Positions 28,345 through 43,832 of a DNA stretch of 64,000 nt are shown here, in pieces. The stretch is taken from assembly GCA_024280885.1 (NCBI GenBank), contig JAJRPF010000055.1, forward strand, positions 39,674-103,673, read 5' to 3'. The DNA is from Planctomycetota bacterium (lineage in GTDB: Bacteria > Planctomycetota > JAJSAM01 > JAJVHW01). The translations under genes and the position numbers were made by a program. The notes under the pieces were generated by a model, which did no database searches, had not been told where the DNA came from, and saw nothing but the letters and a program-made list of their open reading frames with translations. Within the stretch, counting starts at the first letter, position 1; every line of letters begins with the position of its first letter.

Positions 28345-28505
28345 CGCCCAGCAACGTCGCATAACCCCAGCCAGACCGGGTCTATTTTCGCGCCTTTTTG
28401 AGTTGGCAAGGGCCTTTGGGGCACGTTGGACACGCGTCCGGCAGCCCCCAAAAAGGGCGTATAAACAGACCCGGTCTGCGCCTGGTTATGCGACGTTGGC
28501 TGTCT
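28345..28505. repeat. Long imperfect inverted repeat (~55-bp arms around a ~45-bp core with the palindrome GGACACGCGTCC)
   Basis: Left arm gcgcccagcaacgtcgcataaccccagccagaccgggtctattttcgcgcctttttg and right arm (reverse complement) ..caacgtcgcataaccaggcgcagaccgggtctgtttatacgccctttttg; lies between convergent genes. Confidence 0.5.
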
Positions 28506-29988
28506 GTTCTGCCTGGATCTCTGTTAGCACGTCGCGCAGCGTGTTGACGAGTAGCGCGCGTTCCCGGTCGGTGATCCGGAAGTGGGGCGTGAAGCGGAGA
28601 GCGTTGCGTCCCCCGTGGATGATGCCGACGCCGCGGAAGCGGCAGCGCTCCTCGGCGCTACCCGGGCCGATTGCGGCGACGCACTCCGGATTGAGCTCCG
28701 CGCAGAAGAGCAGACCCGTGCCTTGCACCTCGGTGATCATGTCCGGGAACTCGGCCTGAACTGCGCGCAGGTCGTCGAGAAACGCCTCGCCCTGTCGCCG
28801 GATGTTGGCGCGCACGTCGTCGGTCACCATATCGAGCGTGGCACAGGCAACGTCGAGCGCGCGTGGGTTCGTCGTCATCGTGTTTCCGTAGACGCCAATC
28901 GTGTACTCGTCGGCGGCGCGGGACGTCAGCCCGAGGACCGAGAGCGGGTACTGGCCGGCGTTCAGAGCCTTCGACCAACTCTCCATATCCGGAGCGGCGG
29001 CGTCCTGGAAGCCCGGGTAGTCCACGATCGAGAGCGTGCCCCAGGCGCGAAGGCCAGCCTGGATGCTGTCCACGACCAGGAAGCAGTCATGGGCGAGAGT
29101 CAGTTCGCGGGCGAGATCGTAGAACGGGCGCGTCATGGCGAGGCCGGGTGAACCCTCGCCTTGCACGGGCTCCATCCAGAATGCCTCGATGAAGACGTTC
29201 TCGCGCTGGGCGCGGTCGAACGCGGCGCGCAGGGCATCCAGATCGTTCGGCGGAATGGTCCAGAGGTTGTCCAGGCCCTCGAAGGACGCGAGGTAGCGCT
29301 CGTACTTGGGCCTCGTGGAGTCGGAGTAGCTCGCGGGCCGGAACGTGCGACCGTGGAAGGCCCGTTCGATGCCGAGCCCGACTCGTCTCTGCCCCGTGTG
29401 GCGGGCGCCAGGCTGCGTCATATTCTTCGCGTGAACATCGGTGATCCGCGCCGCAACGCTCATCGCCTCGGAGCCGGAATTCATGCAGAGGAATTGACCG
29501 AAAGGGCACCCCGTGCTTCGGGAATGCCCGAGTTCCGCACGGAGCCGCTCGACGAGGCGAAGCTGCGAGACGTTGGCCGTCATGATATTCGCCATGACCT
29601 GTCGACCGGCGAGGGCCCCAATCACGCTGTCCGGGGCATGGCCGAAGCCGAGCATGCCGTACCCGCCACTGTCGTGAACGACGGCTCCATGCAGCGTGAC
29701 GAGCCACGGCCCCTTGGCGGCGAGCGCCACGAAGGGGTTCAGCGCATCCGGAGAGTAGAAGTTTACGTAGCCGGCTTGCACTGCCTCGATCACGGCCAAT
29801 TCGTCTTGCAGGACCAACTCCGGGCGCTCCGCGGCGAGGGCGTCGAATGCCTCGCTGGCCCAGGCGATGGCCGTCTCTAGGTCCCCGTCGTTCTGGAGGA
29901 AGCCCGTCACGATGTCGTTAGGGAGTCCCTTCACACGGGCGGGGCCGGTGGCGGCGCGGATCCTCTGGAGTGTATCGAGCGGCTTCAT
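28486..29988 (-). CDS. Class-III PLP-dependent aminotransferase
   Basis: Class-III aminotransferase region LVVDSIQAGLRAWG and overall similarity to acetylornithine/GABA aminotransferases; start ATG 29988 (MKPLDTLQ...) preceded by GAAGAGG; the track's longer 584-aa ORF includes a non-coding 5' extension. Confidence 0.8.
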   Translation of the reverse strand: MKPLDTLQRIRAATGPARVKGLPNDIVTGFLQNDGDLETAIAWASEAFDALAAERPELVLQDELAVIEAVQAGYVNFYSPDALNPFVALAAKGPWLVTLHGAVVHDSGGYGMLGFGHAPDSVIGALAGRQVMANIMTANVSQLRLVERLRAELGHSRSTGCPFGQFLCMNSGSEAMSVAARITDVHAKNMTQPGARHTGQRRVGLGIERAFHGRTFRPASYSDSTRPKYERYLASFEGLDNLWTIPPNDLDALRAAFDRAQRENVFIEAFWMEPVQGEGSPGLAMTRPFYDLARELTLAHDCFLVVDSIQAGLRAWGTLSIVDYPGFQDAAAPDMESWSKALNAGQYPLSVLGLTSRAADEYTIGVYGNTMTTNPRALDVACATLDMVTDDVRANIRRQGEAFLDDLRAVQAEFPDMITEVQGTGLLFCAELNPECVAAIGPGSAEERCRFRGVGIIHGGRNALRFTPHFRITDRERALLVNTLRDVLTEIQAEQTANVA

Positions 29989-30290
29989 GGGGACCTCTTC
30001 GGCGGGCGACAGTCGGGATGATCGACAGGGCCAACGATGCCATCTGGACGCGCGTCCGACGACCGAATCGTGGGGGTGAGACACCGCGGCGATGAGCTCT
30101 CCCTGGGCGGCGCTGTCCCTGCTGCGAACCCCGACCGCTGAGGCTCGAACCACAATCGGTGCGCGGCGGTTGAACGGATCGACGTGGGGCGCGTCGAACA
30201 ACCTCTCGAATCGAGGGTTCGCGCGTGGCCTGGAGCGCACGCGACGGATACCATGCGCCGGGGAGTCGGATCACCGGAAGGGGGGGCACG

Positions 30291-30929
30291 ATGGGCGAGT
30301 TTCTGACATCGGTTCTCATGTACCCGACCGTGATCTTCTCGGGGCTCATGATCCTCGTGCTCATGTTCTGGATGGTCGCCATGCTTGGTGCCATCGACAT
30401 CGAAATCTTGGATATCGATGCTGACTTCGATGGCGACGCTGATCTCGACGCGGATGGGGGTGGCGGTCTCATCGATACGTTTGGGTTCGCAGGAATGCCG
30501 ATCTCGATCGCGATCTCGACCATCATTCTCTTCGGCTGGATCGTGTGCCTCGTCCTGAACGCGTACGCGATGCCCTCGGTCAGCGAGGTCCTGCCGAAGG
30601 GGGCGTCACGCGTTGTGGTCTTTCTTGCGTCCGCCGTGTTTGCTGTCGTTCTCGCTGCGGTCGCGCTGCGACCGGTGCGCAGAGTGTTCACAGGCCACAA
30701 GGCCGTCTCGAAGCACGCGCTCACGGGGCGCAACTGCCGCATCACATCGATGACGGTCACGGCAGAGCAGGGGCAGGGCGAGATCGAAGACGGCGGCGCG
30801 GGCATCGTGGCGCAGCTGCGCTGTGCTGCGTTCAACACACTGGAACTGCACTCTCGAGCGATCGTGATCGGCTATGACGCAGAACAGGATGCGTTCACGA
30901 TCGAGCCGTTGGATGAACCGGACGCCTGA
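30291..30929 (+). CDS. NfeD-like (YqiJ-type) membrane protein
   Basis: Two N-terminal TM helices, acidic linker, C-terminal OB-fold-like beta domain; sits immediately upstream of a flotillin gene (canonical NfeD-SPFH pairing); ATG 30291 preceded by GGAAGGGGGGG. Confidence 0.7.
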   Translation: MGEFLTSVLMYPTVIFSGLMILVLMFWMVAMLGAIDIEILDIDADFDGDADLDADGGGGLIDTFGFAGMPISIAISTIILFGWIVCLVLNAYAMPSVSEVLPKGASRVVVFLASAVFAVVLAAVALRPVRRVFTGHKAVSKHALTGRNCRITSMTVTAEQGQGEIEDGGAGIVAQLRCAAFNTLELHSRAIVIGYDAEQDAFTIEPLDEPDA

Positions 30930-30997
30930 GTTTCCGGTAAGACAAGAGCGAATGAGAGCGCGCGTCACGCGCTGGTGAACACGGGGAGAGACGACAG

Positions 30998-33004
30998 ATG
31001 CCGAGCATGGAAACACTGATCACAGGCGCAGCCATCTTGGGGGCCGTGTTCTTCCTCGGAATGGCCGTCCTCGTCTTCATCTCCCGCATCTACCGCAAGG
31101 TGGACCAGGGTAAGGCGCTGATCGTCAACACGATGGCTCAAGAGCCGGACGTCACATTCACCGGACGCCACGTCATTCCGGTCTTTCACCGAGCCGAGGT
31201 AATGGACATCTCGGTCAAGACGATCGAGCTCGACCGGCGCGGCAAGGAAGGCCTCATCTGCGGCGACAACATCCGCGCCGATATCAAGGTCATCTTCTTC
31301 GTCCGCGTCAGCAAGACGAAGGAGGACGTGCTCAAGGTCGCGCAGGCGATCGGCTGCGTCCGCGCGTCGGAACAGCGAACACTGGAAGACCTCTTCATCG
31401 CCAAGTTCTCGGAAGCCTTGAAGACCGTCGGCAAGCAACTCGATTTCATCGATCTGTACACCAAGCGCGACGAGTTCCGCGACCAGATGATCCAGCTGAT
31501 CGGGCGCGATCTGAACGGTTACGTCCTGGAAGACGCGGCGATCGATTACCTCGAACAGACGCCGCTTGAGATGCTCGATGAGCACAACATCCTCGACGCT
31601 GAGGGCATCCGCAAGATCACCGACCTCACGACGAAGGAACACATCCGCACCAACCTCTTCACAAACGAAGAGACGATGAAGATCAAGAAGCAAGATGTCG
31701 AGCGCGCCGAGGCGGTCTTCGCGCTGGAACGACAGGAGGCCGAGGCGAAGGCGAAGCAAGAGCGCGAGATCCGCACGGTGCAGGCGCGCGAAGCCGCCGA
31801 AACCCATAGCGTCGAGGCCGAGGAACGCCTGAAGGCCGAAGGTGCCCGGATCAAGACCGACGAGGAGCTCGGCATCCAGGAACAGAACAAGATGCGTCAG
31901 ATCGAAGTCGCGGAGAAGAACCGCGAACGCGTCATCGGCGTCGAGGAAGAGCGCGTCCTGAAGGACCGGCAGCTCGAGGCGATCGCCCGCGAGAGGGTCA
32001 CGGAACTCGAAGACATCGCGAAGGAGAAGGCGCTTGAGGTCGAACGCAAGCTGATCCAAGAGGTCATCCGCGAACGCGTGGCCGTTGAGAAATCGGTCGC
32101 CGTCGAAGAAGAGGCGATCAAGGAGATCCGCGTCGTAGAGGAGGCCAGCCGCACGAAACAGTCGGCTGTCATCACCGCGGAGGCGGAAGCGCAAGAGGCG
32201 CTGATCAAGGTCACGACAGCGGCAGAGGCCGAAGAGGCGGCCGCGCGTCACGCCGCCAAGAAGCGCGTTGTTCTTGCCGAAGCGGAACTGGAAGCGTCCG
32301 ACAAGGAAGCCGCCGCGAAGATCCGTCTGGCCGAGGGCATCCAGGCCCACGAAGCCGCCACGGGACTCGCAGCCGCGCGCGTCAAAGAAGCCGACGCGAC
32401 CGCGCACGAGAAGCACGGCTTGGCCGACGCGAAGGTGCGGCGCGAGATCGGCGTGGCCGACGGCATCGCCATCAAGGAGAAAATGTCCGCCGAGGCCGAT
32501 GGTCTCACGGAGAAGGCCGAGGCCATGAAGCTGCTGGACGGGGTCGGTCGCCAGCACGAGGAGTTCCGCATCCAACTGGAGAAGGACAAGGACGTCGAGA
32601 TCGCGGCGATCGACGCGCAGCGGCGTATCGCAGAAGCACAGGCCGAGACGCTCGGCGAGGCGTTCAAGTCGGCGGACATCGACATCGTCGGCGGCGACGG
32701 ACAGTTCTTCGACCGGATCGTCGGTGCGGTTGGACGGGGCAAGGCCATCGATGGGTTCATGCGCGGTAGCGACACGGCGCAGACCATCTTGGGCGACTAC
32801 ACCGAGGGCCGACGTAGTCTGCCGGAAGACGTGAAGGACATCCTCTCGGACCCTGCCGTCTCGACGGGTGACCTCTCCAATCTCACACTCTCAGCACTCT
32901 TCCTGAAGCTCATGCAAGGTGCAGATGGCGACACGCGCGAGAAGCTCTCGAAGCTCGCCGAACACGCCAAGGATCTGGGCCTGACGGACGCCAAGAAGAA
33001 CTAG
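30998..33004 (+). CDS. Flotillin-like SPFH/band-7 protein (YqiK family)
   Basis: N-terminal TM helix, SPFH domain (ALIVNTMAQEPDVTFTGRHVIPVFHRAEVMDISVKTIEL...), then ~350 aa of EA-rich coiled coil typical of flotillins. Confidence 0.85.
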   Translation: MPSMETLITGAAILGAVFFLGMAVLVFISRIYRKVDQGKALIVNTMAQEPDVTFTGRHVIPVFHRAEVMDISVKTIELDRRGKEGLICGDNIRADIKVIFFVRVSKTKEDVLKVAQAIGCVRASEQRTLEDLFIAKFSEALKTVGKQLDFIDLYTKRDEFRDQMIQLIGRDLNGYVLEDAAIDYLEQTPLEMLDEHNILDAEGIRKITDLTTKEHIRTNLFTNEETMKIKKQDVERAEAVFALERQEAEAKAKQEREIRTVQAREAAETHSVEAEERLKAEGARIKTDEELGIQEQNKMRQIEVAEKNRERVIGVEEERVLKDRQLEAIARERVTELEDIAKEKALEVERKLIQEVIRERVAVEKSVAVEEEAIKEIRVVEEASRTKQSAVITAEAEAQEALIKVTTAAEAEEAAARHAAKKRVVLAEAELEASDKEAAAKIRLAEGIQAHEAATGLAAARVKEADATAHEKHGLADAKVRREIGVADGIAIKEKMSAEADGLTEKAEAMKLLDGVGRQHEEFRIQLEKDKDVEIAAIDAQRRIAEAQAETLGEAFKSADIDIVGGDGQFFDRIVGAVGRGKAIDGFMRGSDTAQTILGDYTEGRRSLPEDVKDILSDPAVSTGDLSNLTLSALFLKLMQGADGDTREKLSKLAEHAKDLGLTDAKKN

Positions 33005-33012
33005 GCCGACCC

Positions 33013-36000
33013 GTGTCCGACGACAAACAGTCAGCCAACGCAGACCCCGGGGGCGGAGCGCAGACGATCGAAGAGGGGACCTACGAGGTCATCCGCAACC
33101 GGCTTCTCTCCCACGGGAAGGAGCTGGCGGGGAAGGCCGACTCTCTCAACGAAGCGCGCATCGAGATCTTCGGCGGTTCGCGCATGTCGATCATCGGCAA
33201 CGAGCGTGTGCGCACGGAGAACAACTGTGTGCCGCGCGATATCGTCGCAATCGGCAACGAGATCCTCTTCGGCTACAACGTCTTCCTCGGGCTCAAGACC
33301 GAGACGAAGCTCGCTGACGTCTTCTCACTGCAGCGGTTCGAGGCAACCGCGACCGGGTTTCAGTTCTCCGCCGCAACCGGCGCAGAGGGGCCGATCTCCG
33401 GTCGCAACCCGGTGGCTGACGAGGTCTTTCAGAAGCATTTCCGCGACCTCTATCAGTACTACAAGGATGCGAAGCTGCAGTCCCTCCGCAAGGTGGACGG
33501 CAAGCTGCTCGCGATCTTCCAGGTGGGGCGCTACCTGACCGACGTCAAGGGCTTCCAGTGGGCACTCGGAGCCGATGGATCGGTCACGTACATCGACAAC
33601 CTGGGTGATCGCCACAACCGTTACCCACCGACGCACGACTTCGAATGGACCGCGACGACGCGCGAGAATCACATCAGCGGGCAACACCCGCACGTCTCCG
33701 TTCTCGACGAGGTCTTCGTCGAGACGGTGGGTGGCGATCTGACGGTCAAGGTCGAAGACAATACGACCGACGGACTCGGTATCTATCGCGAGCCGGTGGT
33801 CGACGCCGATCAGGCGCTCGACGACGCACAGATCGACTACGCGAAGCTTGGCTCGCTGATCCTCATGCGCGTCAAGCCATACCTCGAAGAGGAGCGCCGC
33901 TACCTCGTCTTCAACACGCTGACGCGACGCGTTCATCGCATCGACGCGATCGGCAACGCTTGCGTCCAGTTGCCCGAAGACCACGGCATCATCTTCCCTG
34001 GCGGTTACTACCTGCAGCGCGGCGAGACGAAGGTCTTCGACGCCAACATCGAAGGCATGACGATCGAGCGCGTCGTGCACTCCCCCAACGGCGAGGACGT
34101 GCTCTACGTCTTCCACCGCACGCGCGATGGCGTCTACGTCCTCCTGCCGTACAACATGATCCGCAAGGAAGTGGATACGCCGCTGCACTGCCGCGGCTTC
34201 TGCCTCTTTGAAGACGGGCGTATGATCCTTCTGCGCGCGAGCGGTGACGAGCCCACACGCGTCCACGCAATGCAGATCTGGCAGACGCCGTTCACGAGTG
34301 ACGTCTTTGCTGCACAGGCCCCGACAGGCGACTCGTATCTCGAGAAGATCGGCAACGCAGATCTCGTGCGCGGGATCTCGGATTGCCTCTCGATCCGGCG
34401 CATGATCGAGGAGCAATCCCCGACACGCGAGATGTACGAGGAGTTGATCGCCGCGACGACGCGCGTTCTCGACCACTACCACTGGCTCGCCGCCACGGAG
34501 ATCGGCGATTTCCAAGCGACGTTGCGCGAGGTGCTGCAGACGGCCGAGTTGGTTGTGGACGAGTTCGAGAAGGTGCAGGTGCTACGCGGTGATGCGGCGA
34601 AGGCCATGGCCGTTGCCGAGGAACGCAAGACCGAGCTCTTCAGATCCATCCGTCCGAGCGAGTGGAAGTCGGTCGACGACTTTGTCGGCGCCCTCTCGGG
34701 GATGCGCCAGGAGCGCGGGCGGCTGATCACTCTGCGCGCGGTTCGTTACGTGGACGTCGCGCGCATCGAGCGCTTCGAGGAAGAGGTCGTCCAGCGCTTT
34801 GGCGAGGTCAGCGCGAAGGCCGTTGACTTCCTCGTCGACGCGGATGCTTTGCGTCCCTATCACGTTCGCATCGAGGAGGTCGAAGCCGACATCGAGAGCG
34901 TCACGAAGGTAACAGACGCCGTGCCGCTGGCGGAGTCGCTTGAGTCGATTGGCGAGGGTCTCGATCTGCTCACCGAGGTCGTCGGCGGTCTGGAGATCGA
35001 CGACACGACCGTGCGGACACAGATCCTGGAGTCGATCAGCGAGGCGATGGCCGCGCTGAACCGTGTTCGCGCCCTGGTCACGGCACGCCGGCGTGAGCTG
35101 GGGCACAAGGAAGGCGTGGCCGAGTTCGGCGCGCAATTCGCTCTCTTCTCGCAGAGCGTGGCGTCCGCGCTGGCGCTGGCGGAGACACCCTCGAAATGCG
35201 ACGACCAGATGTCTCGCTTGCTCGTGCAACTCGAAGAGCTCGAAGCGAAATTCAGCGAGTTCGACGATTTCCTTGAGCAACTGACCACGAAGAGGGAAGA
35301 GGTCGTCGAGGCGCTTGGTGGCAAGAAGCAGATGTTGTTGGACCAACGTCAGCGACGGGCCCAGCAGTTGATGCAGGCCGTGGAGCGCATCCTGGGCGGC
35401 GTCGCGCGGCGCGCGAGTGCGTTCAGCGAGATCGACGACCTGAACGCGTACTTCGTGTCCGACCCGATGATCCTGAAGGTGCGCGATCTGGCCGAGAAAC
35501 TCCGCGACCTCGACGACTCGGTCCGCGCGGACGAGGCGGACTCGCGCCTGAAGTCTGCTCGCGAAGATGCCGTGCGCTCACTGCGTGACAAGCGCGACAT
35601 CTTCGAGGAGGGCGGCGCGGTCATCCGTCTGGGCAAGCACGCGTTCAGCGTCAACACGCAAACCCTCGATCTTACGATGGTGCCGCACGCCGACGGGATC
35701 GCACTGCACCTGACCGGTACGGACTTCCGCGAACAGGTCGAAGACGACGCCTTCGCAGCGACTCGTACGTACTGGTCGCAGGACGTGGTCTCCGAGACCG
35801 CAGAGGTCTACCGCGCCGAGTATCTTGCGTACTCGCTACTCGCCGCCGCCGAGCGCGGTGAGGACGGCCTGAACATGGCGCGCTTGACCGAGGCTGCGCT
35901 CGACGAGACAAAGCTCCTCGCAGTCGTACGCGAGGCCGCGGGGACACGCTACGACGAAGGCTATGAACGCGGTGTTCATGACCACGATGCGGCACTGATA

Positions 36001-38571
36001 CTGGGGCGCGTTGTCGGTCTCTATCGTTCGGCTGGGCTCTTGCGTTTCGCGCCGGCAGCGCGCGCCGCAGCATGCCTGTCGTGGGCGTTTGGACCGGAGG
36101 ATCAGTCCGCTGCGCGCGCGCGTCTTCGCCGTCGGGCGCAGAGCTTGCAACGACTCCGACAAGCGTTCACCCAGAGCGACGCGATCGTGTTGCTCGAACG
36201 CGATCTGACCGAGATCGTCGTGGCGTTCCATGCTGATGCGGGGCTCGAAGTGAGTGAAGGGGACGGACGCGTCGCCGGCCGCTATCTCTTCGAGCAACTC
36301 GGTATCGCGGAGGAACGCTTCGTCGCAGGGGGAGAGGCGTCGGGCGTTCTCTCCGCCTTCCTTGCGCATGTGGACTCGCTCGGGTCGCGACGGGACCTCG
36401 AAGAGGATCTCGAACGACTCGACGGCGAGTTGGCGCAGCAGCACGCACTGCTCTCGGCGTGGCTGACAGCATGGGCGGACTCGCGCGACGAAGCAGAGGC
36501 CGATGCGGCCCGTGCCGTGCTGCCCGAGGCTGTCGCGTTGCAACTGATCGGCGAACGCTTGCCGCGCGAAGTGCAGACGGCGACTTCGCGGACGACCGTC
36601 GAGGGACTGCTCGGTCAGCACAAGCGGATCGCAGAGCGTCAGATGGACGTTCGGCTGGACGCATTTCTCGGTCGACTCTCGCGCTTCGCACACGAGCGGG
36701 TGCCTGGCTATCGCGCCTACCAGACGCGCCGCGCCAAGTTGCTTGCCCGTGAGAAGAGCCGCCTCCGGATCTCGGAGTTCATGCCGCGGGTGCTTTCGTC
36801 ATTCGTACGCAACCGCCTGATCGACGAGGCGTACCTGCCCCTGATCGGGGACAATCTCGCGAAGCAACTCGGCGCCCGCGGCGCGGCGAAGCGCACGGAC
36901 CTGATGGGGCTCTTGCTCCTCATCTCGCCCCCCGGCTACGGCAAGACGACGTTGATGGAGTACATCGCGAACCGCCTCGGGTTGGTCTTCATGAAAATCA
37001 ACGGTCCGGCGTTGGGGCATTCCGTCACGTCGCTCGATCCGGGCGAGGCCCCGAATGCCACGGCGCGTCAGGAAGTCGAGAAGATCAACCTGGCGCTCGA
37101 GATGGGCAATAACGTGTTGCTCTACCTCGACGACATCCAGCACACGCACCCAGAGTTGCTCCAGAAGTTCATCTCTCTGTGTGACGCCCAGCGCAAGATC
37201 GAGGGCATGTGGCGCGGGACGACGCGCACATACGACCTGCGCGGAAAGAAGTTCGTCGTCTGCATGGCAGGCAATCCCTACACGGAATCGGGCGAGCGGT
37301 TCCAGGTGCCGGACATGCTGGCGAATCGCGCCGACGTCTACAATCTGGGCGATGTGCTCGGCGGCAAGGAAGAGCTCTTCGCGCTCAGCTACATCGAGAA
37401 TGCGCTCACGTCGAATACGGTGCTGGCCCAGATCGCCACACACGACCACCGCGACATTCATCCGCTCGTGCGCATGGCGCAGGGGGCGGAGATCCCGGCC
37501 TCGGAATTGAACCACCAGTACTCGCGCGTTGAACTCGACGAGTTGCTCTCCGTCCTGCGCAAGGTCCTGCGTGTCCAGGAGGTCCTACTCGCCGTCAATC
37601 GCGAGTACATCCGTTCCGCGTCGATGGACGACGACTATCGCACCGAGCCGCCGTTCCAGTTGCAGGGCAGCTATCGCAACATGAACAAGCTGGCCGAGAA
37701 GATCGTGCCGGTGATGAACGACGCCGAGCTCGAGGCACTGCTTGTCGATCACTATCTGGGAGAGGCGCAGACGCTGACGTCGGGGGCGGAGCAGAATCTG
37801 CTCAAGCTCTCCGAACTGCGCGGGCAGATGACGGAGGCCGAGCAGGCGCGGTGGACGGAGATCAAAGATGCGTTCGCGCGCCGCCGCATGATGGGTGGCG
37901 ACGACGACGATCCGGTTGTCCGCGTGACCTCGCAGCTCATTCGCTTGGGCGACAGCGTCGGCAGCATCGGAGAATCGATCCGCGAGGCCGCAGACGAGAG
38001 CCGCATTCGCCAGAAATCGTGGGAGCAAGCGCTGGTGACGCGTCGCGAAGCACAGGTCGAGACCGATGCCGCGCTCGTCGCCGCGCGTGACGATGAGGGC
38101 GAAAGGGACGCCGCCGCCGACGCTCCCGCACTCGCTGATGCACTGGCGCAGACGCTCGGTCCGGTCCTCGCGCAGCTCGAGGCGACACTGGTCACGCTCT
38201 CGAATCGGCAAACCCTGGCCGATTCCGCGCCATCAGCGGCGGCACGTGACGTGGCGGCTGGTTCAGCCGAAGACGATGCTGCAGACAAGGTCGCCACGCT
38301 CGCCGCGCGGCAGTCGGAGATCATCGAGGTGGGGCTCCTGCCCGTGCTGCGTTCCATGAACCAGAACCTCAAGATCTCGCGTGCTGTGTGGGAGCGTCTG
38401 GAGGGGGTGCAGCGACGGCTCGACGCGCTTGCTGGCAAGTCGGCAGCGAAGCGTGCCAAGAAGACTGCCAAGAAGGCGTCGAAGTCGGCGTCCAAGAAGT
38501 CCGGGGCGCAAGCGGCGGCGAAGCGGTCGTCCCCGTCGGGTGACGGTAACTCGGATCCGTCACCTGCGTAG
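33013..38571 (+). CDS. Giant (1852-aa) protein: N-terminal beta-rich domain, long coiled-coil middle, C-terminal MoxR/dynein-like AAA+ ATPase domain, basic C-terminal tail
   Basis: Walker A ISPPGYGKTT, Walker B LLYLDDIQH, sensor region FVVCMAGNPYTESGERFQVPDMLANRADVYNLG; starts 8 bp after the flotillin stop (GTG 33013); such proteins are often labelled 'DNA repair ATPase' without evidence. Confidence 0.7.
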   Translation: MSDDKQSANADPGGGAQTIEEGTYEVIRNRLLSHGKELAGKADSLNEARIEIFGGSRMSIIGNERVRTENNCVPRDIVAIGNEILFGYNVFLGLKTETKLADVFSLQRFEATATGFQFSAATGAEGPISGRNPVADEVFQKHFRDLYQYYKDAKLQSLRKVDGKLLAIFQVGRYLTDVKGFQWALGADGSVTYIDNLGDRHNRYPPTHDFEWTATTRENHISGQHPHVSVLDEVFVETVGGDLTVKVEDNTTDGLGIYREPVVDADQALDDAQIDYAKLGSLILMRVKPYLEEERRYLVFNTLTRRVHRIDAIGNACVQLPEDHGIIFPGGYYLQRGETKVFDANIEGMTIERVVHSPNGEDVLYVFHRTRDGVYVLLPYNMIRKEVDTPLHCRGFCLFEDGRMILLRASGDEPTRVHAMQIWQTPFTSDVFAAQAPTGDSYLEKIGNADLVRGISDCLSIRRMIEEQSPTREMYEELIAATTRVLDHYHWLAATEIGDFQATLREVLQTAELVVDEFEKVQVLRGDAAKAMAVAEERKTELFRSIRPSEWKSVDDFVGALSGMRQERGRLITLRAVRYVDVARIERFEEEVVQRFGEVSAKAVDFLVDADALRPYHVRIEEVEADIESVTKVTDAVPLAESLESIGEGLDLLTEVVGGLEIDDTTVRTQILESISEAMAALNRVRALVTARRRELGHKEGVAEFGAQFALFSQSVASALALAETPSKCDDQMSRLLVQLEELEAKFSEFDDFLEQLTTKREEVVEALGGKKQMLLDQRQRRAQQLMQAVERILGGVARRASAFSEIDDLNAYFVSDPMILKVRDLAEKLRDLDDSVRADEADSRLKSAREDAVRSLRDKRDIFEEGGAVIRLGKHAFSVNTQTLDLTMVPHADGIALHLTGTDFREQVEDDAFAATRTYWSQDVVSETAEVYRAEYLAYSLLAAAERGEDGLNMARLTEAALDETKLLAVVREAAGTRYDEGYERGVHDHDAALILGRVVGLYRSAGLLRFAPAARAAACLSWAFGPEDQSAARARLRRRAQSLQRLRQAFTQSDAIVLLERDLTEIVVAFHADAGLEVSEGDGRVAGRYLFEQLGIAEERFVAGGEASGVLSAFLAHVDSLGSRRDLEEDLERLDGELAQQHALLSAWLTAWADSRDEAEADAARAVLPEAVALQLIGERLPREVQTATSRTTVEGLLGQHKRIAERQMDVRLDAFLGRLSRFAHERVPGYRAYQTRRAKLLAREKSRLRISEFMPRVLSSFVRNRLIDEAYLPLIGDNLAKQLGARGAAKRTDLMGLLLLISPPGYGKTTLMEYIANRLGLVFMKINGPALGHSVTSLDPGEAPNATARQEVEKINLALEMGNNVLLYLDDIQHTHPELLQKFISLCDAQRKIEGMWRGTTRTYDLRGKKFVVCMAGNPYTESGERFQVPDMLANRADVYNLGDVLGGKEELFALSYIENALTSNTVLAQIATHDHRDIHPLVRMAQGAEIPASELNHQYSRVELDELLSVLRKVLRVQEVLLAVNREYIRSASMDDDYRTEPPFQLQGSYRNMNKLAEKIVPVMNDAELEALLVDHYLGEAQTLTSGAEQNLLKLSELRGQMTEAEQARWTEIKDAFARRRMMGGDDDDPVVRVTSQLIRLGDSVGSIGESIREAADESRIRQKSWEQALVTRREAQVETDAALVAARDDEGERDAAADAPALADALAQTLGPVLAQLEATLVTLSNRQTLADSAPSAAARDVAAGSAEDDAADKVATLAARQSEIIEVGLLPVLRSMNQNLKISRAVWERLEGVQRRLDALAGKSAAKRAKKTAKKASKSASKKSGAQAAAKRSSPSGDGNSDPSPA

Positions 38572-38664: not shown

Positions 38665-40038
38665 ATGCTTGCGACCCACATGCGAACGACTCATGCACTC
38701 GCCTTGCTCCGGAAGATGGCGAATTTTGCGCTGGCGCTCGGACTGCTCACCGCCGCGTCGCTTCCGGCCTCGGCTCAGGACCGCTCGGCGAAGAACGCGT
38801 TACCGCGCTGGGCGCCGTCGATCGAGAAGGGACTCGCAGAGGCGACGGAACGTGGCGTCGCGATGATGGTCGCGCTCAACATGGACGACGAGCGCGGCAA
38901 CCAGGGGATGGTGGACAACGTCTACACGGACAAGAAGTTCCTGCAGGCAACGGAGAAGTGTGTTGTCGCGATCGGTTCCCTGTTCCAGCACGGCGCCGGA
39001 GGCTCGGCAATCTGTGAGCGCTTTGGCACGATCACATGCGCCCAACATCAGGCGATCGAGAAGGTCATCCGGCAGGACTGGCTGAAGCGCGGTCCCAACG
39101 ATGACGTCGAGAGTCCGCGGCACTTCTTCCTCGCCCCCGATGGCCGCATGCTCTTCCAACGCACGTGGACGATGCGAGCTGGCGCGCTTGCCGAATTGAT
39201 GACACGGGCATCGGAACTCTGCACGCCAGGGCGGTTGGCGAATTGGAACACCCTCGACGCGAAGTTGGAGCGCGCCGCAGATACGGCCCAGTCCGTGCGC
39301 GAAGCTGCGCTGGAAGAGTTGATCGCCGAGAACGACCCGGAGATCGACGCGCAACTCGCCACCCTCGCGAAGAAGTCCAAGGAGCCGATGGTGACCGGTT
39401 CCATCCTTGCATCGTTCGCCCTCGCGAAGACTCCCGAGCGTCGCGCACTTGCCCACTCGGCGCTCTCGCACAAGGCGCCCGAGGTCCGCATGCTGGTCGC
39501 ACACGCCATGCACCAGAGCGGTGCGGGAGATCATCTGAAGCCGCTCCTGAAGCGCACCGGAAAGGAGCGCGACCGAGCCGCCAAGGGCGAGATGTATCGC
39601 GCGCTTGGCATCCTCGCACCTGACCAGAAGGACGAGGCCAAGGCGCTCAAACTGATCCTGAAAGGCGTGGGGAACTCAAAGGACGATGGGCGTGCTCATG
39701 CGTGTGTCGCCAGCGCGCATTGGGTGAACGAGAAGGGCGTGCGCGCCGCACTCGAGAAGGTGCTCGTGCAGGGCGGCTCACGCGTTCTTCGTTCGTCCGC
39801 TGTGTGGGCTCTCGGCTACAGCGACGCGAAGGGCATAAAGAAGACCCTTCAGACGTACCGCGATGGCCTGTCGCGACGGGACTGGCGCGTGAAGCAAGTG
39901 ACCGACGCGGCGATCGCCAAGTTGCGCGGCCTGGTGAAGAACGAGGCGGCGTACGACGCCGCGCCGGAGAAGTTCCTCCCTCATCCGGCGGACGGAGTCG
40001 AGGACGACGAAGACTCCGACGGCGGCCGCAGGCGTTGA
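38665..40038 (+). CDS. Secreted thioredoxin-fold (DUF255-like) plus HEAT-repeat protein
   Basis: Signal peptide; N-terminal thioredoxin-like segment (MMVALNMDDERGNQGMVDNVYTDKKF...); C-terminal HEAT/PBS-lyase-like repeats. Confidence 0.55.
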   Translation: MLATHMRTTHALALLRKMANFALALGLLTAASLPASAQDRSAKNALPRWAPSIEKGLAEATERGVAMMVALNMDDERGNQGMVDNVYTDKKFLQATEKCVVAIGSLFQHGAGGSAICERFGTITCAQHQAIEKVIRQDWLKRGPNDDVESPRHFFLAPDGRMLFQRTWTMRAGALAELMTRASELCTPGRLANWNTLDAKLERAADTAQSVREAALEELIAENDPEIDAQLATLAKKSKEPMVTGSILASFALAKTPERRALAHSALSHKAPEVRMLVAHAMHQSGAGDHLKPLLKRTGKERDRAAKGEMYRALGILAPDQKDEAKALKLILKGVGNSKDDGRAHACVASAHWVNEKGVRAALEKVLVQGGSRVLRSSAVWALGYSDAKGIKKTLQTYRDGLSRRDWRVKQVTDAAIAKLRGLVKNEAAYDAAPEKFLPHPADGVEDDEDSDGGRRR

Positions 40039-40175
40039 TAGGGCGCGGAAGCTCTCATCGTCGGCGCGTGTTGGTGTGCTCAGAAGCAGCGCACGAACCG
40101 AACGACTAACCGGCTCTCACGGTCCGGCTCTTCCCCATGTCGTGGGGCGCACGCGTGCTCTGGGGAGGACGCACG

Positions 40176-41678
40176 ATGGCCGACGTTTCCGCAAACGACG
40201 CGGCGCTGAATTCCAGGGGCCGCACGCACGCGCACGCTTCCCCGCGCGTCCTCGCGTACTACGCCGGCGCCGCCACGCTGATCGGTTTCTACGGCGGTCA
40301 GGTCTGTTCGTTTCTGGAGACGCTTGGCGCGGGCCGGATCATTCTCATTATGGGGAGTGCATTCGGCCTGGCGTTGATTGCGCGCTACCTGCTCGAACCG
40401 CACTTTGTCGATTGCGCCCCCGACGTGGCCCAGGGCCGGAGACAGCTGGTCCTCGACTTCGGGCTCTTTCTGGCTGTCGGCTTCGGTGTGACGTTCTGGG
40501 ACATTGCGGTCCACCGTTTTCCGGTTGTCAGCGGAGTCAAGCTGACGCTCGGCTGCGCGACAATCGGCGTCTTTGCGGCGATCGACCTTGCGTTGGAAAG
40601 AGAGCGACACGTCGCGCGTCGCCTCATCGCTTCCGGCGCGTCCGGCAAACTCGTACGCCGCGGCGCGTCTGTGACACTCAAGCTCGCCGTTCCGGCGCTG
40701 AGTCTCACGGCGCTGGTTGCAACCGATGTCGCCCTGCTCGTGAACAAGGACCTCGACTACCTCGCTTCAGCGGGGCCGGAAGAGGTCGGTGCCGCACGCA
40801 TGGCGGTCGTCACGGAGATCGGGTTCGTGATGGCGGTGCTTTCCGTCCTACTGGTCGTCGTCATCGTCTCGTTCTCACGCAATCTCCGGCTCTTCTTCGA
40901 CAACGAGACGGCGATCCTGGAGGACGTCGCTGCAGGTGACTTGGAGCGGTACGTTCCAGTAGCCAGTGACGACGAATTCGGTCTCATCGCGAGTCATACC
41001 AATCAGATGATCGACGGGCTCCGCGAGCGCCGACGGGTGAAGCAGATCTTCGGGAAGATGGTCAGCCCGAAACTCGCCAAGCGCATCCTAGAGTCCGACG
41101 TGGGAATGCGGCCGTCCGGGACACGTCGACGCGTGGCCGTGCTCTTCTCAGATGTCCGCAACTTCACGACGCGCACCGAGAACAGCCCCGCCGAGGAAGT
41201 CGTGAACGATCTCAATCTCTACTTCGAGCAGATGGTGGCGATCGTCCATCGACACGGCGGGGGGGGGGACAAGTTCATCGGCGATGGGATGATGGCCGTC
41301 TTCGGTGTCGAGGACGTCGAAGGGGCCGCCGACGCGTCCGTTCAGGCGGGCATCGAGATGCTCGCGGCCGTCGAGGAACTCAATCCGCGGCTCACCGCGC
41401 CCATCGCGATTGGCGTGGGCGTTCACATCGGCGATGTGATCGCGGGGAGCATCGGCTCCACAGAGCGTCTCGAGTACACCTTCATTGGCGACGCGGTGAA
41501 CGTGGCTGCGCGCCTCGAGGGCCTCACGAAGGAAGTGGGTGCCCCGCTGGTCGTCTCGGCCGTGACCCGCGACGAGATTCAGGATGCTGATCTCCGCCGC
41601 TGCCTCGTCGATCTGGGTGCCCACGCGTTGAAGGGCAAGGCGCAGGCTTTACCGGTTTGGGGTGTCCCGGCGGCGTGA
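40176..41678 (+). CDS. Membrane-bound class III adenylate/guanylate cyclase with HAMP-like linker
   Basis: Six N-terminal TM segments; cyclase core RRVAVLFSDVRNFTTRTE...FIGDGMMAVFG...IAIGVGVHIGDVIAGSIGS...YTFIGDAVNVAARLEG. Confidence 0.85.
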   Translation: MADVSANDAALNSRGRTHAHASPRVLAYYAGAATLIGFYGGQVCSFLETLGAGRIILIMGSAFGLALIARYLLEPHFVDCAPDVAQGRRQLVLDFGLFLAVGFGVTFWDIAVHRFPVVSGVKLTLGCATIGVFAAIDLALERERHVARRLIASGASGKLVRRGASVTLKLAVPALSLTALVATDVALLVNKDLDYLASAGPEEVGAARMAVVTEIGFVMAVLSVLLVVVIVSFSRNLRLFFDNETAILEDVAAGDLERYVPVASDDEFGLIASHTNQMIDGLRERRRVKQIFGKMVSPKLAKRILESDVGMRPSGTRRRVAVLFSDVRNFTTRTENSPAEEVVNDLNLYFEQMVAIVHRHGGGGDKFIGDGMMAVFGVEDVEGAADASVQAGIEMLAAVEELNPRLTAPIAIGVGVHIGDVIAGSIGSTERLEYTFIGDAVNVAARLEGLTKEVGAPLVVSAVTRDEIQDADLRRCLVDLGAHALKGKAQALPVWGVPAA

Positions 41679-41699
41679 TCACACAGGTGCGCGCGGCAC

Positions 41700-41810
41700 T
41701 CAGTCGTCGTCTTCGAGCTGGGCTCGAACGAACCAGCCGATCCCGATTCCGAAGAGAATGGAGAGTGGGATTGCCCATATATGCGGCCAGAAGGTGATGT
41801 CCATCATTGT
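41700..41810 (-). CDS. Possible 36-aa hydrophobic micro-protein (MMDITFWPHIWAIPLSILFGIGIGWFVRAQLEDDD)
   Basis: Below the ORF-track size cutoff; single TM helix; no clear SD; sits just after the cyclase gene on the opposite strand. Confidence 0.25.
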   Translation of the reverse strand, partial: TMMDITFWPHIWAIPLSILFGIGIGWFVRAQLEDDD

Positions 41811-42035
41811 CCGCGGAGTGTAGCGCGACCCGGGTGCGCGACCGAACGCAACTGCGCGGAGTGAAGCGCAGCCGGCTCTGCCGACGCGACCTGGACGTCA
41901 TGCGCTTGCCCGTGTCCGGTGACAGCGCGGCGGATGACAGCCTGGCGCACGGTGCTACGATCACGTGAGGATCGCTGTCGGGGCTGTTCAGTTGCCTCGG
42001 CGTGTGTCAGCGACGCACTGGGTCAGCGAGGAAAC

Positions 42036-43832
42036 ATGCGAGCCATTCTCTCCGGGATCTTGACGGGCGTCATCGGGGTGGGCCTGCTGCCGTCGGGCGC
42101 CTTTGCCCACGGTGGGTACTACCAGGGACCGCGCACGCCGAGCGGCGTGCCGATCCCTACGTCCGGACCGACGACAGGCGGGGGATTGCGCGGGGGGCCA
42201 ACGACGGGCGGTGGCGGCTATGGTCCCGCCGTCACTGGGCGCAAGGGGAAGAAGGTCCGCGAGGTCACTCCCTCGACCACGACTCTCCCCCCTGCGTTCG
42301 CCGATCCGCCTGTGATGGCGACCGGTTGGGAGCAATGGTGGGCCTTCCACCGCGAGGAGTTCCTCCGTACCGAACCCGGCGGCGCGCGACCGCTCGACGT
42401 CACGCCGCGGCAGCGCGACAGCGGCGACGGCCCGCCGGAGGGAGTACGCGAGGCCGCGGTCCGCGCGCTGATCGCAGCGAGCAAGGAGGGATCGGCCGAC
42501 GTGCGTGCGTCCGCCGCTCTCGCGCTCGCGCGGACCGACGATGAGCGCGCGGTCGCCGTGCTGCGCAGTATGGCAAGTGACGACGCGGCGGACGACGTGC
42601 GCGATGTCGCGCTGCTCGCGCTCGGCATCGTCGGTGGGCCGATCGAGGTGCCCTTCCTGCACGGGGTTTTCTCTGATGCCTCTAGGTCAGAACGCGCGCG
42701 CGCCTTGGCTGCGATCGCGCTCGGCATGGTGGGCGACGAGGACGCGGTCGATCTCATCGCGATGACACTCACTCCGGGTGAGAAGGCCGCCGCCAAGATC
42801 CCAGATGAAGTGATGGCCGCGGGCCTGATCGGGCTCGGTGCCGGCCGCCGACCGACTGCGGTCCCCGTGCTGCGCCAGGCCCTCACGAACGTGCGCCTGC
42901 ATTCGCTCGTACGTGCCCACGCGGCAACGGCACTCGGTGCGGTGGGGGACCGTGGTTCGCTGGAACTACTCCGTCGCCAGGTCCTGAACTCGCGCGAGCC
43001 GCTGGTGCGACAGAGTTGCGTCATCGCGCTCGGTCGCATGCTCTCGGTGGAAGACGTCGAGGCGATCAATGCGTTGCTCCACGTGGCGAAGGGCGACCGG
43101 GATCAGACGGTTCAGTCATTCGCGGCGCTGGCGCTCGGCGCCATCGACGGTGAGGCCGTTCGCGATCAGCTCCTCGTTCTCTTCGCGAGTTCGTCGGACA
43201 ACGACAAGACCTGGCGCGCGCTCGCGCTGGGACTGCAAGGCGATGCCACCGTCCTGCCCACGCTGCGCTCTGCTTTCCGGGCCGACGATCACGAGGAGAG
43301 TCTGCAAGGCGCATATGCGATCGCGATGGCGTTCTTGCACGACCGCGAAGCGAGAGCTCTTCTCGAATCCGAGGTCAGCCGACACCGGCGGTTCTGGTCA
43401 CCGACCTATGCCGCGCAAGCGCTGGCCATGCTCGGTTCACGCGAGAGCGCAGACGTCATTCACGCACGGCTCGATTGGGCCACCGATCCCAGACAACGCG
43501 CCGCGATGGCGACTGCCCTGGGCATCCTGGGCGACGAGCGCTCGACGAAGGCGATGGTGCAACAACTGCGCGGTGAGGACTCGATCTACCTGGCGTGTAC
43601 TGCCGCGATGGTGCTCGGGGCCGCGCGTCGAACAGATGCACTTGAAGAACTGATCAAGACCGCCGGTGATGTCGATCGCAACCGGTACGTGCGCGCCTGC
43701 GCCGCGTCGGCCATCGGTCGCATTCTCGACTCTGGCGACGTTCCGGTACTGGCCGACCTGCTCGCGCCGCAGCACTACCTCTCTCCGCTGGTCTCGATTG
43801 CGTTCGCGCGCGACATGCTTGACAAACGCTGA
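42036..43832 (+). CDS. HEAT/PBS-lyase-like repeat protein with Gly/Pro-rich N-terminal region and signal peptide
   Basis: Signal MRAILSGILTGVIGVGLLPSGAFA; Gly-rich low-complexity stretch; >10 repeats of the (D/E)xxVRxxAAxALG HEAT-like motif. Confidence 0.7.
   Translation: MRAILSGILTGVIGVGLLPSGAFAHGGYYQGPRTPSGVPIPTSGPTTGGGLRGGPTTGGGGYGPAVTGRKGKKVREVTPSTTTLPPAFADPPVMATGWEQWWAFHREEFLRTEPGGARPLDVTPRQRDSGDGPPEGVREAAVRALIAASKEGSADVRASAALALARTDDERAVAVLRSMASDDAADDVRDVALLALGIVGGPIEVPFLHGVFSDASRSERARALAAIALGMVGDEDAVDLIAMTLTPGEKAAAKIPDEVMAAGLIGLGAGRRPTAVPVLRQALTNVRLHSLVRAHAATALGAVGDRGSLELLRRQVLNSREPLVRQSCVIALGRMLSVEDVEAINALLHVAKGDRDQTVQSFAALALGAIDGEAVRDQLLVLFASSSDNDKTWRALALGLQGDATVLPTLRSAFRADDHEESLQGAYAIAMAFLHDREARALLESEVSRHRRFWSPTYAAQALAMLGSRESADVIHARLDWATDPRQRAAMATALGILGDERSTKAMVQQLRGEDSIYLACTAAMVLGAARRTDALEELIKTAGDVDRNRYVRACAASAIGRILDSGDVPVLADLLAPQHYLSPLVSIAFARDMLDKR

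Follow-up and report, generated by a model that had tools for sequence, protein, structure and literature searches.

Bacterial flotillins and NfeD proteins are widespread, and their mechanism is still debated. The 64-kb stretch of Planctomycetota bacterium DNA analyzed here (the window; GC content about 65%) carries genes for an NfeD-type and a flotillin-like membrane protein (genes 1 and 2), directly followed by a gene for an 1852-residue AAA+ ATPase (gene 3), and the question that this locus raises is what such a giant ATPase does in the company of two membrane proteins. Few conserved bacterial proteins of unassigned function are as large as the gene 3 product, and the name under which its relatives are filed, "DNA repair ATPase" (others are called "MoxR-like ATPase"), is misleading; that databases use this label had been pointed out in an earlier note on this DNA, made from its sequence alone. 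We think it somewhat better than an even chance (roughly 55%) that the trio is an operon for a membrane-associated, ATP-driven machine of the envelope-stress or membrane-remodeling kind and not for DNA repair. The evidence that carries this reading is the conservation of the linkage, the nature of the additional genes that join the trio in some lineages, and the predicted structure of the ATPase.

Layout and conservation of the three-gene module

The three open reading frames (ORFs) lie on the + strand with gaps of 68 bp (genes 1 and 2) and 8 bp (genes 2 and 3), and gene 3 begins with a GTG codon at 33013; the coordinates, the tiny gaps and the GTG start are all as the earlier note gave them. 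The best start of gene 1 is the ATG at 30291, which is preceded by the ribosome-binding stretch GGAAGGGGGGG. No terminator-like site was found on the + strand within the module, where a scan for sigma-70 promoters and terminators is uninformative at 65% GC, and a search for the sigma-54 consensus 5′ of gene 1 found no site, so that nothing points to PspF-type control. None of the genes that flank the module in the window is conserved in related loci, and thus the unit consists of exactly three genes.

Homologs of gene 3 are numerous, with at least 6952 proteins at E < 1e-10. Full-length homologs are 54–70% identical to it, and a search with its first 700 residues hits 974 clusters formed at 50% identity. 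Genomic loci were retrieved with two peptide patterns, one of them the motif EPPF.LQGSYRNM, which gave at least 588 gene 3 loci among 185,579 species-level genomes; the neighborhood counts given here rest on the best 80 of these, plus plasmid and divergent members. The 80 loci belong to Myxococcota, Actinomycetota, Acidobacteriota, Planctomycetota, Gammaproteobacteria and Zetaproteobacteria; Deinococcota and Bacteroidota come in through records of plasmids and chromids. Hosts among the 588 or more genomes include Myxococcus, Streptomyces, Pseudomonas, Proteus, Xenorhabdus and Vibrio.

All 75 loci with at least 3.5 kb of upstream sequence have a gene 2 homolog (44–63% identity) upstream of gene 3 on the same strand, within 600 nt of it in 71 cases, and this linkage spans at least six phyla. 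Clustering found the gene 1 family in 76 loci, and gene 1 precedes gene 2 within 600 nt in 64 of the 75. Divergent members of the gene 3 family, whose N-terminal regions are only 30–41% identical, likewise have an SPFH-sized gene (about 650–690 codons) directly upstream (three of three), itself preceded in two of the three by a gene of about 205–212 codons. The proposed check for the three-gene linkage in other genomes was thus strongly positive, and read from the ATPase side the flotillin-ATPase linkage is essentially obligate. The sequences also vary together: across 73 loci the correlation of pairwise identities is r = 0.94 between genes 2 and 3 and r = 0.875 between genes 1 and 3. All lineages examined have inherited the trio as a set. 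Clustering of 83 loci found no universally conserved gene family beyond genes 1 and 2, the remaining large clusters being shadow ORFs in the same high-GC genes.

A separate arrangement is seen in protein P0172 (L090:8001-15100; ENA ERZ25070591, ctg142925_5x_l), in which an NfeD1b_N domain (PF25145, E 3e-15) stands before DUF3686. The DUF3686 match starts near residue 669, and the AAA+ half is encoded as a separate 982-aa gene. We considered P0172 as a flotillin-ATPase fusion and rejected this, as BLASTP against gene 2 was negative and the extension holds instead NfeD1b_N, which is the N-terminal domain of long NfeD proteins. P0172 may be a real fusion of NfeD and ATPase, or an artifact of frameshifts in the 5x-coverage long-read contig.

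Additional partner genes

In some lineages further genes join the trio. Of the 23 gammaproteobacterial loci, 16 have genes for DUF2170/YjfI and PspA/IM30 immediately before gene 1 (PspA_IM30 Pfam matches at E 1e-43 to 1e-53), and a Hymenobacter (Bacteroidota) plasmid has the same five-gene string, with PspA and DUF2170/YjfI before the trio. A rhomboid protease gene is found directly 3′ of gene 3 in six gammaproteobacterial loci, an arrangement that recalls SLP2-PARL-YME1L, the mitochondrial SPFH-rhomboid-AAA complex. A TelA gene (PF05816, toxic-anion resistance) adjoins the two most divergent gene 3 members with inspected neighborhoods. The PspA, YjfI, rhomboid and TelA partners are all membrane or envelope-stress proteins.

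We also note that the Pseudomonas fluorescens megaplasmid pQBR103 (NC_009444.1, 85401-104410; L085) carries a full PspA-rhomboid-YjfKLMC-like cluster and then the trio, in the order PspA, rhomboid, DUF2491, DUF350, DUF1190, GspS (glutathionylspermidine-synthase-like), gene 1, gene 2 and gene 3; the rhomboid gene inside this cluster is at L085:478-1032. This copy is a ready experimental system. The rhomboid genes 3′ of gene 3 are in loci L034, L041, L056, L060, L061 and L067, at about 14.9–15.9 kb (L056: 7.3–7.8 kb), and the TelA genes are at L087:13502-14608, L088:13502-14608 and L089:13001-14221.

The giant ATPase

Pfam places the gene 3 protein in the DUF3686 (E 9e-204) and DUF7902 (E 4e-29) families, with weak matches to AAA, AAA_5 (23.5 bits against a cut-off of 22) and RuvB_N. 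No hydrophobic segment was found in it, and it is predicted to be soluble. From an alignment of 78 sequences, two AlphaFold2 models were made that together span the protein from end to end; their mean predicted local distance difference test (pLDDT) scores are 89.6 and 87.3. They place a helix at residues 23–53 and about 28 beta strands at residues 59–424, in agreement with the beta-rich N-terminal domain that the earlier note had expected. Because Foldseek matches this domain to beta-propellers only, at modest E-values and with low template modeling (TM) scores, we regard it as a divergent propeller. Spectrin-like three-helix bundles follow (about 420 residues), then a small beta unit after residue 863, and then, from about residue 910, a conserved helical domain that holds the invariant motif Y..G..H-D-.-D (invariant columns G987, H989, D990 and D992).

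Both nucleotide-binding motifs of the AAA+ core that the earlier note had quoted, ISPPGYGKTT (residues 1304–1313) and LLYLDDIQH, are present, in a protein of the length it gave. Walker A reads SPPGYGKTT in 188 of 189 full-length homologs, and in 188 of the 189 Walker B reads DD[IV]QH, that is, hhhhDD and not the usual DE. N1421, the sensor-1 candidate, and R1439 are invariant in the alignment, and Walker A, the sensor-1 candidate and the candidate arginines do not vary across 78 diverse members of the family. The Foldseek match with the best E-value to the core is RuvB (4.6e-5), and the best target-normalized TM-scores (0.53–0.58) are those of CbbQ and NorQ; thus the core resembles RuvB as well as the MoxR-type ATPases, to which it had been assigned. 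A beta-hairpin (residues 1395–1408) precedes the sensor-1 strand in the model, and the region GNPYTESGE..F.IPDMLANRAD presumably parallels the MoxR pattern NP.E.EG.Y.LPEA.LDRF. The loop after strand 2 of the core has no aromatic residue, which argues for a MoxR/RuvB-style remodeler rather than a threading unfoldase.

The lid and the C-terminal helical domain behind it hold the EPPF.LQGSYRNM motif, which is invariant. The part beyond them is variable: tblastn matches to most homologs stop near residue 1660, pLDDT is low after about residue 1685, and the Lys-rich tail is not conserved in homologs.

No characterized family claims the giant protein in profile, PADLOC or PDB searches: a PDB sequence search gave P-loop-level matches only, and scans with NCBIfam and PADLOC gave no meaningful family. 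An SMC/SbcC/Rad50-type split ABC head was also looked for and is not seen: the AAA+ module is single and contiguous (residues 1295–1450), the helical region consists of spectrin-like bundles in the models, and Pfam and NCBIfam give no SMC or Rad50 match. As modeled, then, the protein consists of a divergent propeller, spectrin-like helical repeats and one AAA+ module with invariant nucleotide-binding motifs.

The two membrane proteins

The gene 1 protein has three hydrophobic segments (residues 4–42, 63–97 and 103–133), an acidic, Asp-rich loop after the first of them, and a C-terminal soluble domain whose pattern G..C.V.T..V...FGQA...DGG....VR....L..G..ALI..YD is conserved in the family alignment. 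By itself it has no Pfam match, and NfeD is not found even at E-values up to 10. A profile of 42 orthologs matches E. coli YqiJ with an hhalign probability of 94% (E 1.3e-7), in an alignment that spans the second transmembrane segment through the C-terminal domain. Pfam YqiJ_N is matched by five of the 42 family members (best E 8e-5) and NfeD by two, at E 0.02 or weaker, and the Hymenobacter ortholog is annotated by NCBI as DUF1449, which is the YqiJ family. These matches identify gene 1 as encoding a divergent YqiJ/NfeD-type polytopic membrane protein, as the earlier note had read it.

The gene 2 protein has a single hydrophobic segment (residues 3–33), a putative N-terminal membrane anchor. 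A Band_7 domain follows, which scores 38.9 bits where the cut-off is 23.6, and then a long helical stretch rich in Glu and Ala; the C-terminal part is divergent. The search for its homologs yielded close relatives only. In this family the Band_7 domain is the most conserved part (column conservation 0.74–0.81) and the last ~70 residues are the least conserved. BLASTP aligns the protein with E. coli YqiK at 2e-36 (29% identity over 462 aa), and the family profile matches YqiK residues 23–422 at 99.9% hhalign probability (E 6e-34). The homology, over about 430–460 residues, reaches through the Glu/Ala-rich coiled coil. Its identification as a YqiK-like SPFH protein with one N-terminal anchor, a flotillin in the terms of the earlier note, therefore stands by sequence comparison. 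The two differ at the C-terminus: E. coli YqiK matches the Pfam Flot domain (PF15975) at E 6e-41, whereas no match was found at E-values up to 1 in gene 2 and five relatives, and the hhalign alignment ends where the Flot domain of YqiK begins. Some motif-level resemblance to Flot is retained in this part (...IDIVGGDG...), so that the domain may be present in divergent form.

Comparison with known systems

The association of these genes is already published. From sequence analysis alone, in a paper that gives no structure, Ravi et al. (mSystems 2024;9(6):e00847-23; PMC11237479) described operons that combine a CesT/Tir-PspA dyad with a band-7/flotillin protein, a YqiJ/YuaF-type protein with three transmembrane segments and a beta-propeller-coiled-coil-AAA+ protein. 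They report that abbreviated operons without PspA are more widespread and that the ATPase accompanies the band-7/YqiJ pair "in some cases" (PMC11237479). The window has the same three proteins in the same order and lacks the CesT/Tir (YjfI)-PspA dyad; as tblastn and a PspA hidden Markov model found no PspA or YjfI homolog anywhere in its 64 kb, it is the abbreviated form. The locus thus joins a computationally described, experimentally unstudied operon class, and because the association is published the conceptual novelty of the window is limited. What is added here is the constant company of the ATPase and the pair in all 75 loci and the tight co-variation of the three sequences, together with confident models that predict spectrin-like repeats and a divergent propeller, and the apparent family-wide DD Walker B and divergent flotillin C-terminus. 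The immediate practical value lies in a corrected annotation and a well-defined experimental target.

The two-gene NfeD-flotillin core is found in the same order in E. coli yqiJ-yqiK, B. subtilis yuaF-floT (yuaG) and S. aureus nfeD-floA, operons that are known to act in membrane microdomains and in the tolerance of stress (PMC2636767, PMC11222466). Unlike the window these operons have no giant ATPase gene (E. coli yqiK is followed by sibD/ibsD), and blastn of the gene 3 of an enterobacterial relative against 5,426 E. coli genomes gave no match. An SPFH oligomer likewise meets an AAA+ protein at the membrane in HflK/C-FtsH and in prohibitin or SLP2 with the mitochondrial AAA proteases. FtsH, however, is membrane-anchored and has a protease domain, whereas the gene 3 protein is predicted to be soluble, lacks a protease domain and has three times the size, with an AAA+ core closer to RuvB/MoxR than to the classic clade of FtsH. 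HflK/C face the periplasm and YqiK-type proteins the cytoplasm (PMC2636767).

With respect to the MoxR ATPases (RavA, CbbQ and NorQ), the CbbQ/NorQ fold match, the AAA_5 score just above cut-off and the sensor-1 pattern speak for a resemblance, though the best Foldseek E-value is that of RuvB. On the other side, no VWA-domain partner gene is conserved near gene 3 in the 83 loci, the 1290-residue N-terminal extension has no MoxR counterpart, and Walker B is DD. Vps4 and ESCRT-III may offer a functional analogy, in that the AAA+ gene is genetically coupled in some lineages to PspA, a member of the ESCRT-III superfamily. The gene 3 protein nevertheless has no MIT domain and is not a Vps4-type classic-clade AAA protein, and PspA is absent from most gene 3 loci, the window included. 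To our knowledge bacteria, which have PspA/ESCRT-III-like polymers, lack Vps4.

Proposed function and alternatives

By analogy with the solved SPFH-NfeD (QmcA-YbbJ) and SPFH-AAA+ (HflK/C-FtsH) assemblies, the products of genes 1 and 2 would build an oligomeric platform or cage at the inner membrane, on its cytoplasmic side. Through its AAA+ domain the giant ATPase would assemble into a ring, and its propeller-tipped, spectrin-like arms would dock on the flotillin assembly, for which the C-terminal third of the gene 2 protein is a candidate site. ATP hydrolysis would then remodel, disassemble or reposition membrane-bound polymers or clients, either the flotillin lattice itself or PspA polymers, in a manner resembling that of Vps4 on ESCRT-III. 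Of the two roles at which the earlier note had guessed, membrane remodeling is supported by the recurrent association with PspA/IM30 and rhomboid genes, and defense found no support in the PADLOC, plasmid and phage searches. An independent published sequence analysis reached the same class of prediction (PMC11237479), and recruitment of PspA by an SPFH protein has been demonstrated by experiment in B. subtilis (PMC8581546). If the ATPase is indeed the energy-consuming partner of a flotillin platform, it offers a tractable handle on what such platforms do. A more specific picture, which we offer tentatively and think less likely than not, is that of a hexameric mechanoenzyme with six arms, seated on flotillin cages, that would spend ATP on the assembly, disassembly or movement of SPFH or PspA (ESCRT-III-like) membrane polymers. 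It would be a bacterial counterpart of the membrane-remodeling ATPases of the Vps4/ESCRT-III or NSF type, and its spectrin-like arms and propeller tips would amount to a primitive skeleton or coat beneath the membrane.

Several points weigh against the membrane-machine reading. The whole case is computational, and the oligomeric state of the ATPase, its docking on the flotillin and its substrate are drawn from analogy; our literature search found no experimental study of any member of the gene 3 family, and nothing that connects DUF3686, PF12458, DUF7902 or "DNA repair ATPase" with flotillin or SPFH proteins. The rate of ATP hydrolysis may be unusual, given a Walker B of DD rather than DE, and the cage-closing region of the gene 2 protein may differ from that of characterized flotillins, since no Flot domain is recognizable by Pfam. 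No PspA gene lies within 10 kb of the module in the loci of Myxococcota, Actinomycetota, Acidobacteriota and Planctomycetota or in the window, so that the PspA link rests on Gammaproteobacteria, Bacteroidota and one plasmid.

The same domain arrangement could also serve a static structure. The propeller-plus-helical layout retrieves IFT-A and clathrin heavy chain, and this, together with the DD Walker B and the missing aromatic pore-loop residue, would fit a membrane skeleton or coat that tethers flotillin patches and uses its AAA+ domain as a nucleotide-regulated oligomerization switch, not as a motor. We consider this unlikely, as the TM-scores to coat proteins are very low (0.06–0.19) and the invariance of the active-site residues across the 78 members suggests selection for catalysis and not for binding alone. 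A role in anti-phage or anti-plasmid defense, with the flotillin platform sensing infection and the ATPase executing an abortive-infection or blocking response, is in our judgment improbable. Large multidomain NTPases are common in defense systems and PspA was first found as a phage-induced protein; moreover, the patchy distribution across phyla suggests horizontal transfer, the module is present on pQBR103, and in one locus (L003) toxin-antitoxin-like genes lie a few kb downstream. PADLOC models, however, match gene 3 only marginally or at the P-loop level (E 6e-4 to 8e-3) and genes 1 and 2 not at all, Pfam finds no nuclease, protease, TIR, Sir2 or other effector domain, and no neighboring gene family is conserved besides the PspA, YjfI and rhomboid genes. 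Only 13 of 72,556 plasmid records carry the module, most of them megaplasmids, chromids or whole chromosomes, tblastn against phage records gave no match, and a mean pairwise identity of 53% across phyla is high for a defense gene.

The remaining alternative takes the database name at face value: the giant protein would be a DNA repair ATPase, and its adjacency to the flotillin gene would be incidental or would reflect membrane-tethered DNA transactions. In favor of it are the description of DUF3686 in Pfam and the product names given by NCBI; further, the RuvB P-loop is weakly matched and the AAA+ core is structurally like RuvB, and the Lys/Ala-rich tail of the window's protein could bind nucleic acid. 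Against this, the RuvB matches are confined to the Walker A region (22–24 bits against cut-offs of about 280–300) and are equaled by matches to p97, MoxR and spastin; Pfam finds neither a DNA-binding or nuclease domain nor an ABC head of the SMC/Rad50 type, homologs lack the basic tail, the neighborhoods hold no conserved repair gene, both obligate partners are membrane proteins, and the literature search found no paper that backs the name. The name rests only on the Pfam description and on P-loop-level similarity to RuvB, and we regard a repair function as very improbable.

Features of the module and its surroundings

Table 1. Features of the three-gene module and neighboring genes in the window (AF2, AlphaFold2; residue numbers refer to the protein named)
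Feature	Position	Strand	Evidence or remark
Gene 1, YqiJ/NfeD-type inner-membrane protein, 212 aa	30291..30929	+	ORF, ribosome-binding site, family profile
Gene 1, C-terminal soluble beta domain (~70 aa; residues ~140-207), putative NfeD/YqiJ OB-like partner-binding domain	30708..30911	+	alignment
Gene 2, YqiK-like SPFH/flotillin-family protein, 668 aa	30998..33004	+	Pfam Band_7, BLASTP, hhalign
Gene 2, SPFH/Band_7 domain, residues 34-238	31097..31711	+	Pfam E 1.2e-9
Gene 2, C-terminal third undetected by the Pfam Flot model, residues ~455-668	32360-33004	+	
Gene 3, predicted soluble AAA+ ATPase of the DUF3686/DUF7902 family, 1852 aa	33013..38571	+	Pfam, AF2 models
Gene 3, N-terminal helix and predicted divergent beta-propeller (DUF3686, residues 37-490)	33121..34482	+	AF2, Pfam, Foldseek
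Gene 3, predicted spectrin-like three-helix-bundle repeats, residues 442-863	34336..35601	+	AF2 model
Gene 3, DUF7902 inside the spectrin-like repeats, residues 611-695	34843-35097	+	Pfam
Gene 3, conserved middle helical domain with small beta inserts, residues ~910-1290	35740..36882	+	AF2 pLDDT mostly >90
Gene 3, AAA+ alpha/beta core, residues ~1295-1450	36895..37362	+	AF2, Foldseek, Pfam
Gene 3, Walker A SPPGYGKTT, residues 1305-1313	36925-36951	+	sequence
Gene 3, Walker B LLYLDDIQH, residues 1369-1377	37117-37143	+	sequence
Gene 3, lid and conserved C-terminal helical domain, residues ~1451-1630	37363..37902	+	AF2, alignment
Gene 3, variable C-terminal long helices and disordered Lys-rich tail, residues ~1634-1852	37912..38568	+	
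Class-III aminotransferase gene	28486-30240	-	~170-residue N-terminal extension without Pfam match
HEAT-repeat protein gene	38665-40038		downstream of module
MASE10-HAMP-adenylate/guanylate cyclase gene	40137-41678		between the two HEAT-repeat genes
Second HEAT-repeat protein gene	41919-43832		downstream of module

The nearest 3′ neighbors of the module are genes for a HEAT-repeat protein and a MASE10-HAMP-cyclase, and the HEAT-cyclase-HEAT arrangement of which they are part (38665-43832) is not kept beside the module in other genomes. The 5′ neighbor, the class-III aminotransferase gene, is divergently transcribed. Its start lies only 50 bp from that of gene 1, and thus the divergent promoters of the two genes must overlap coding sequence.

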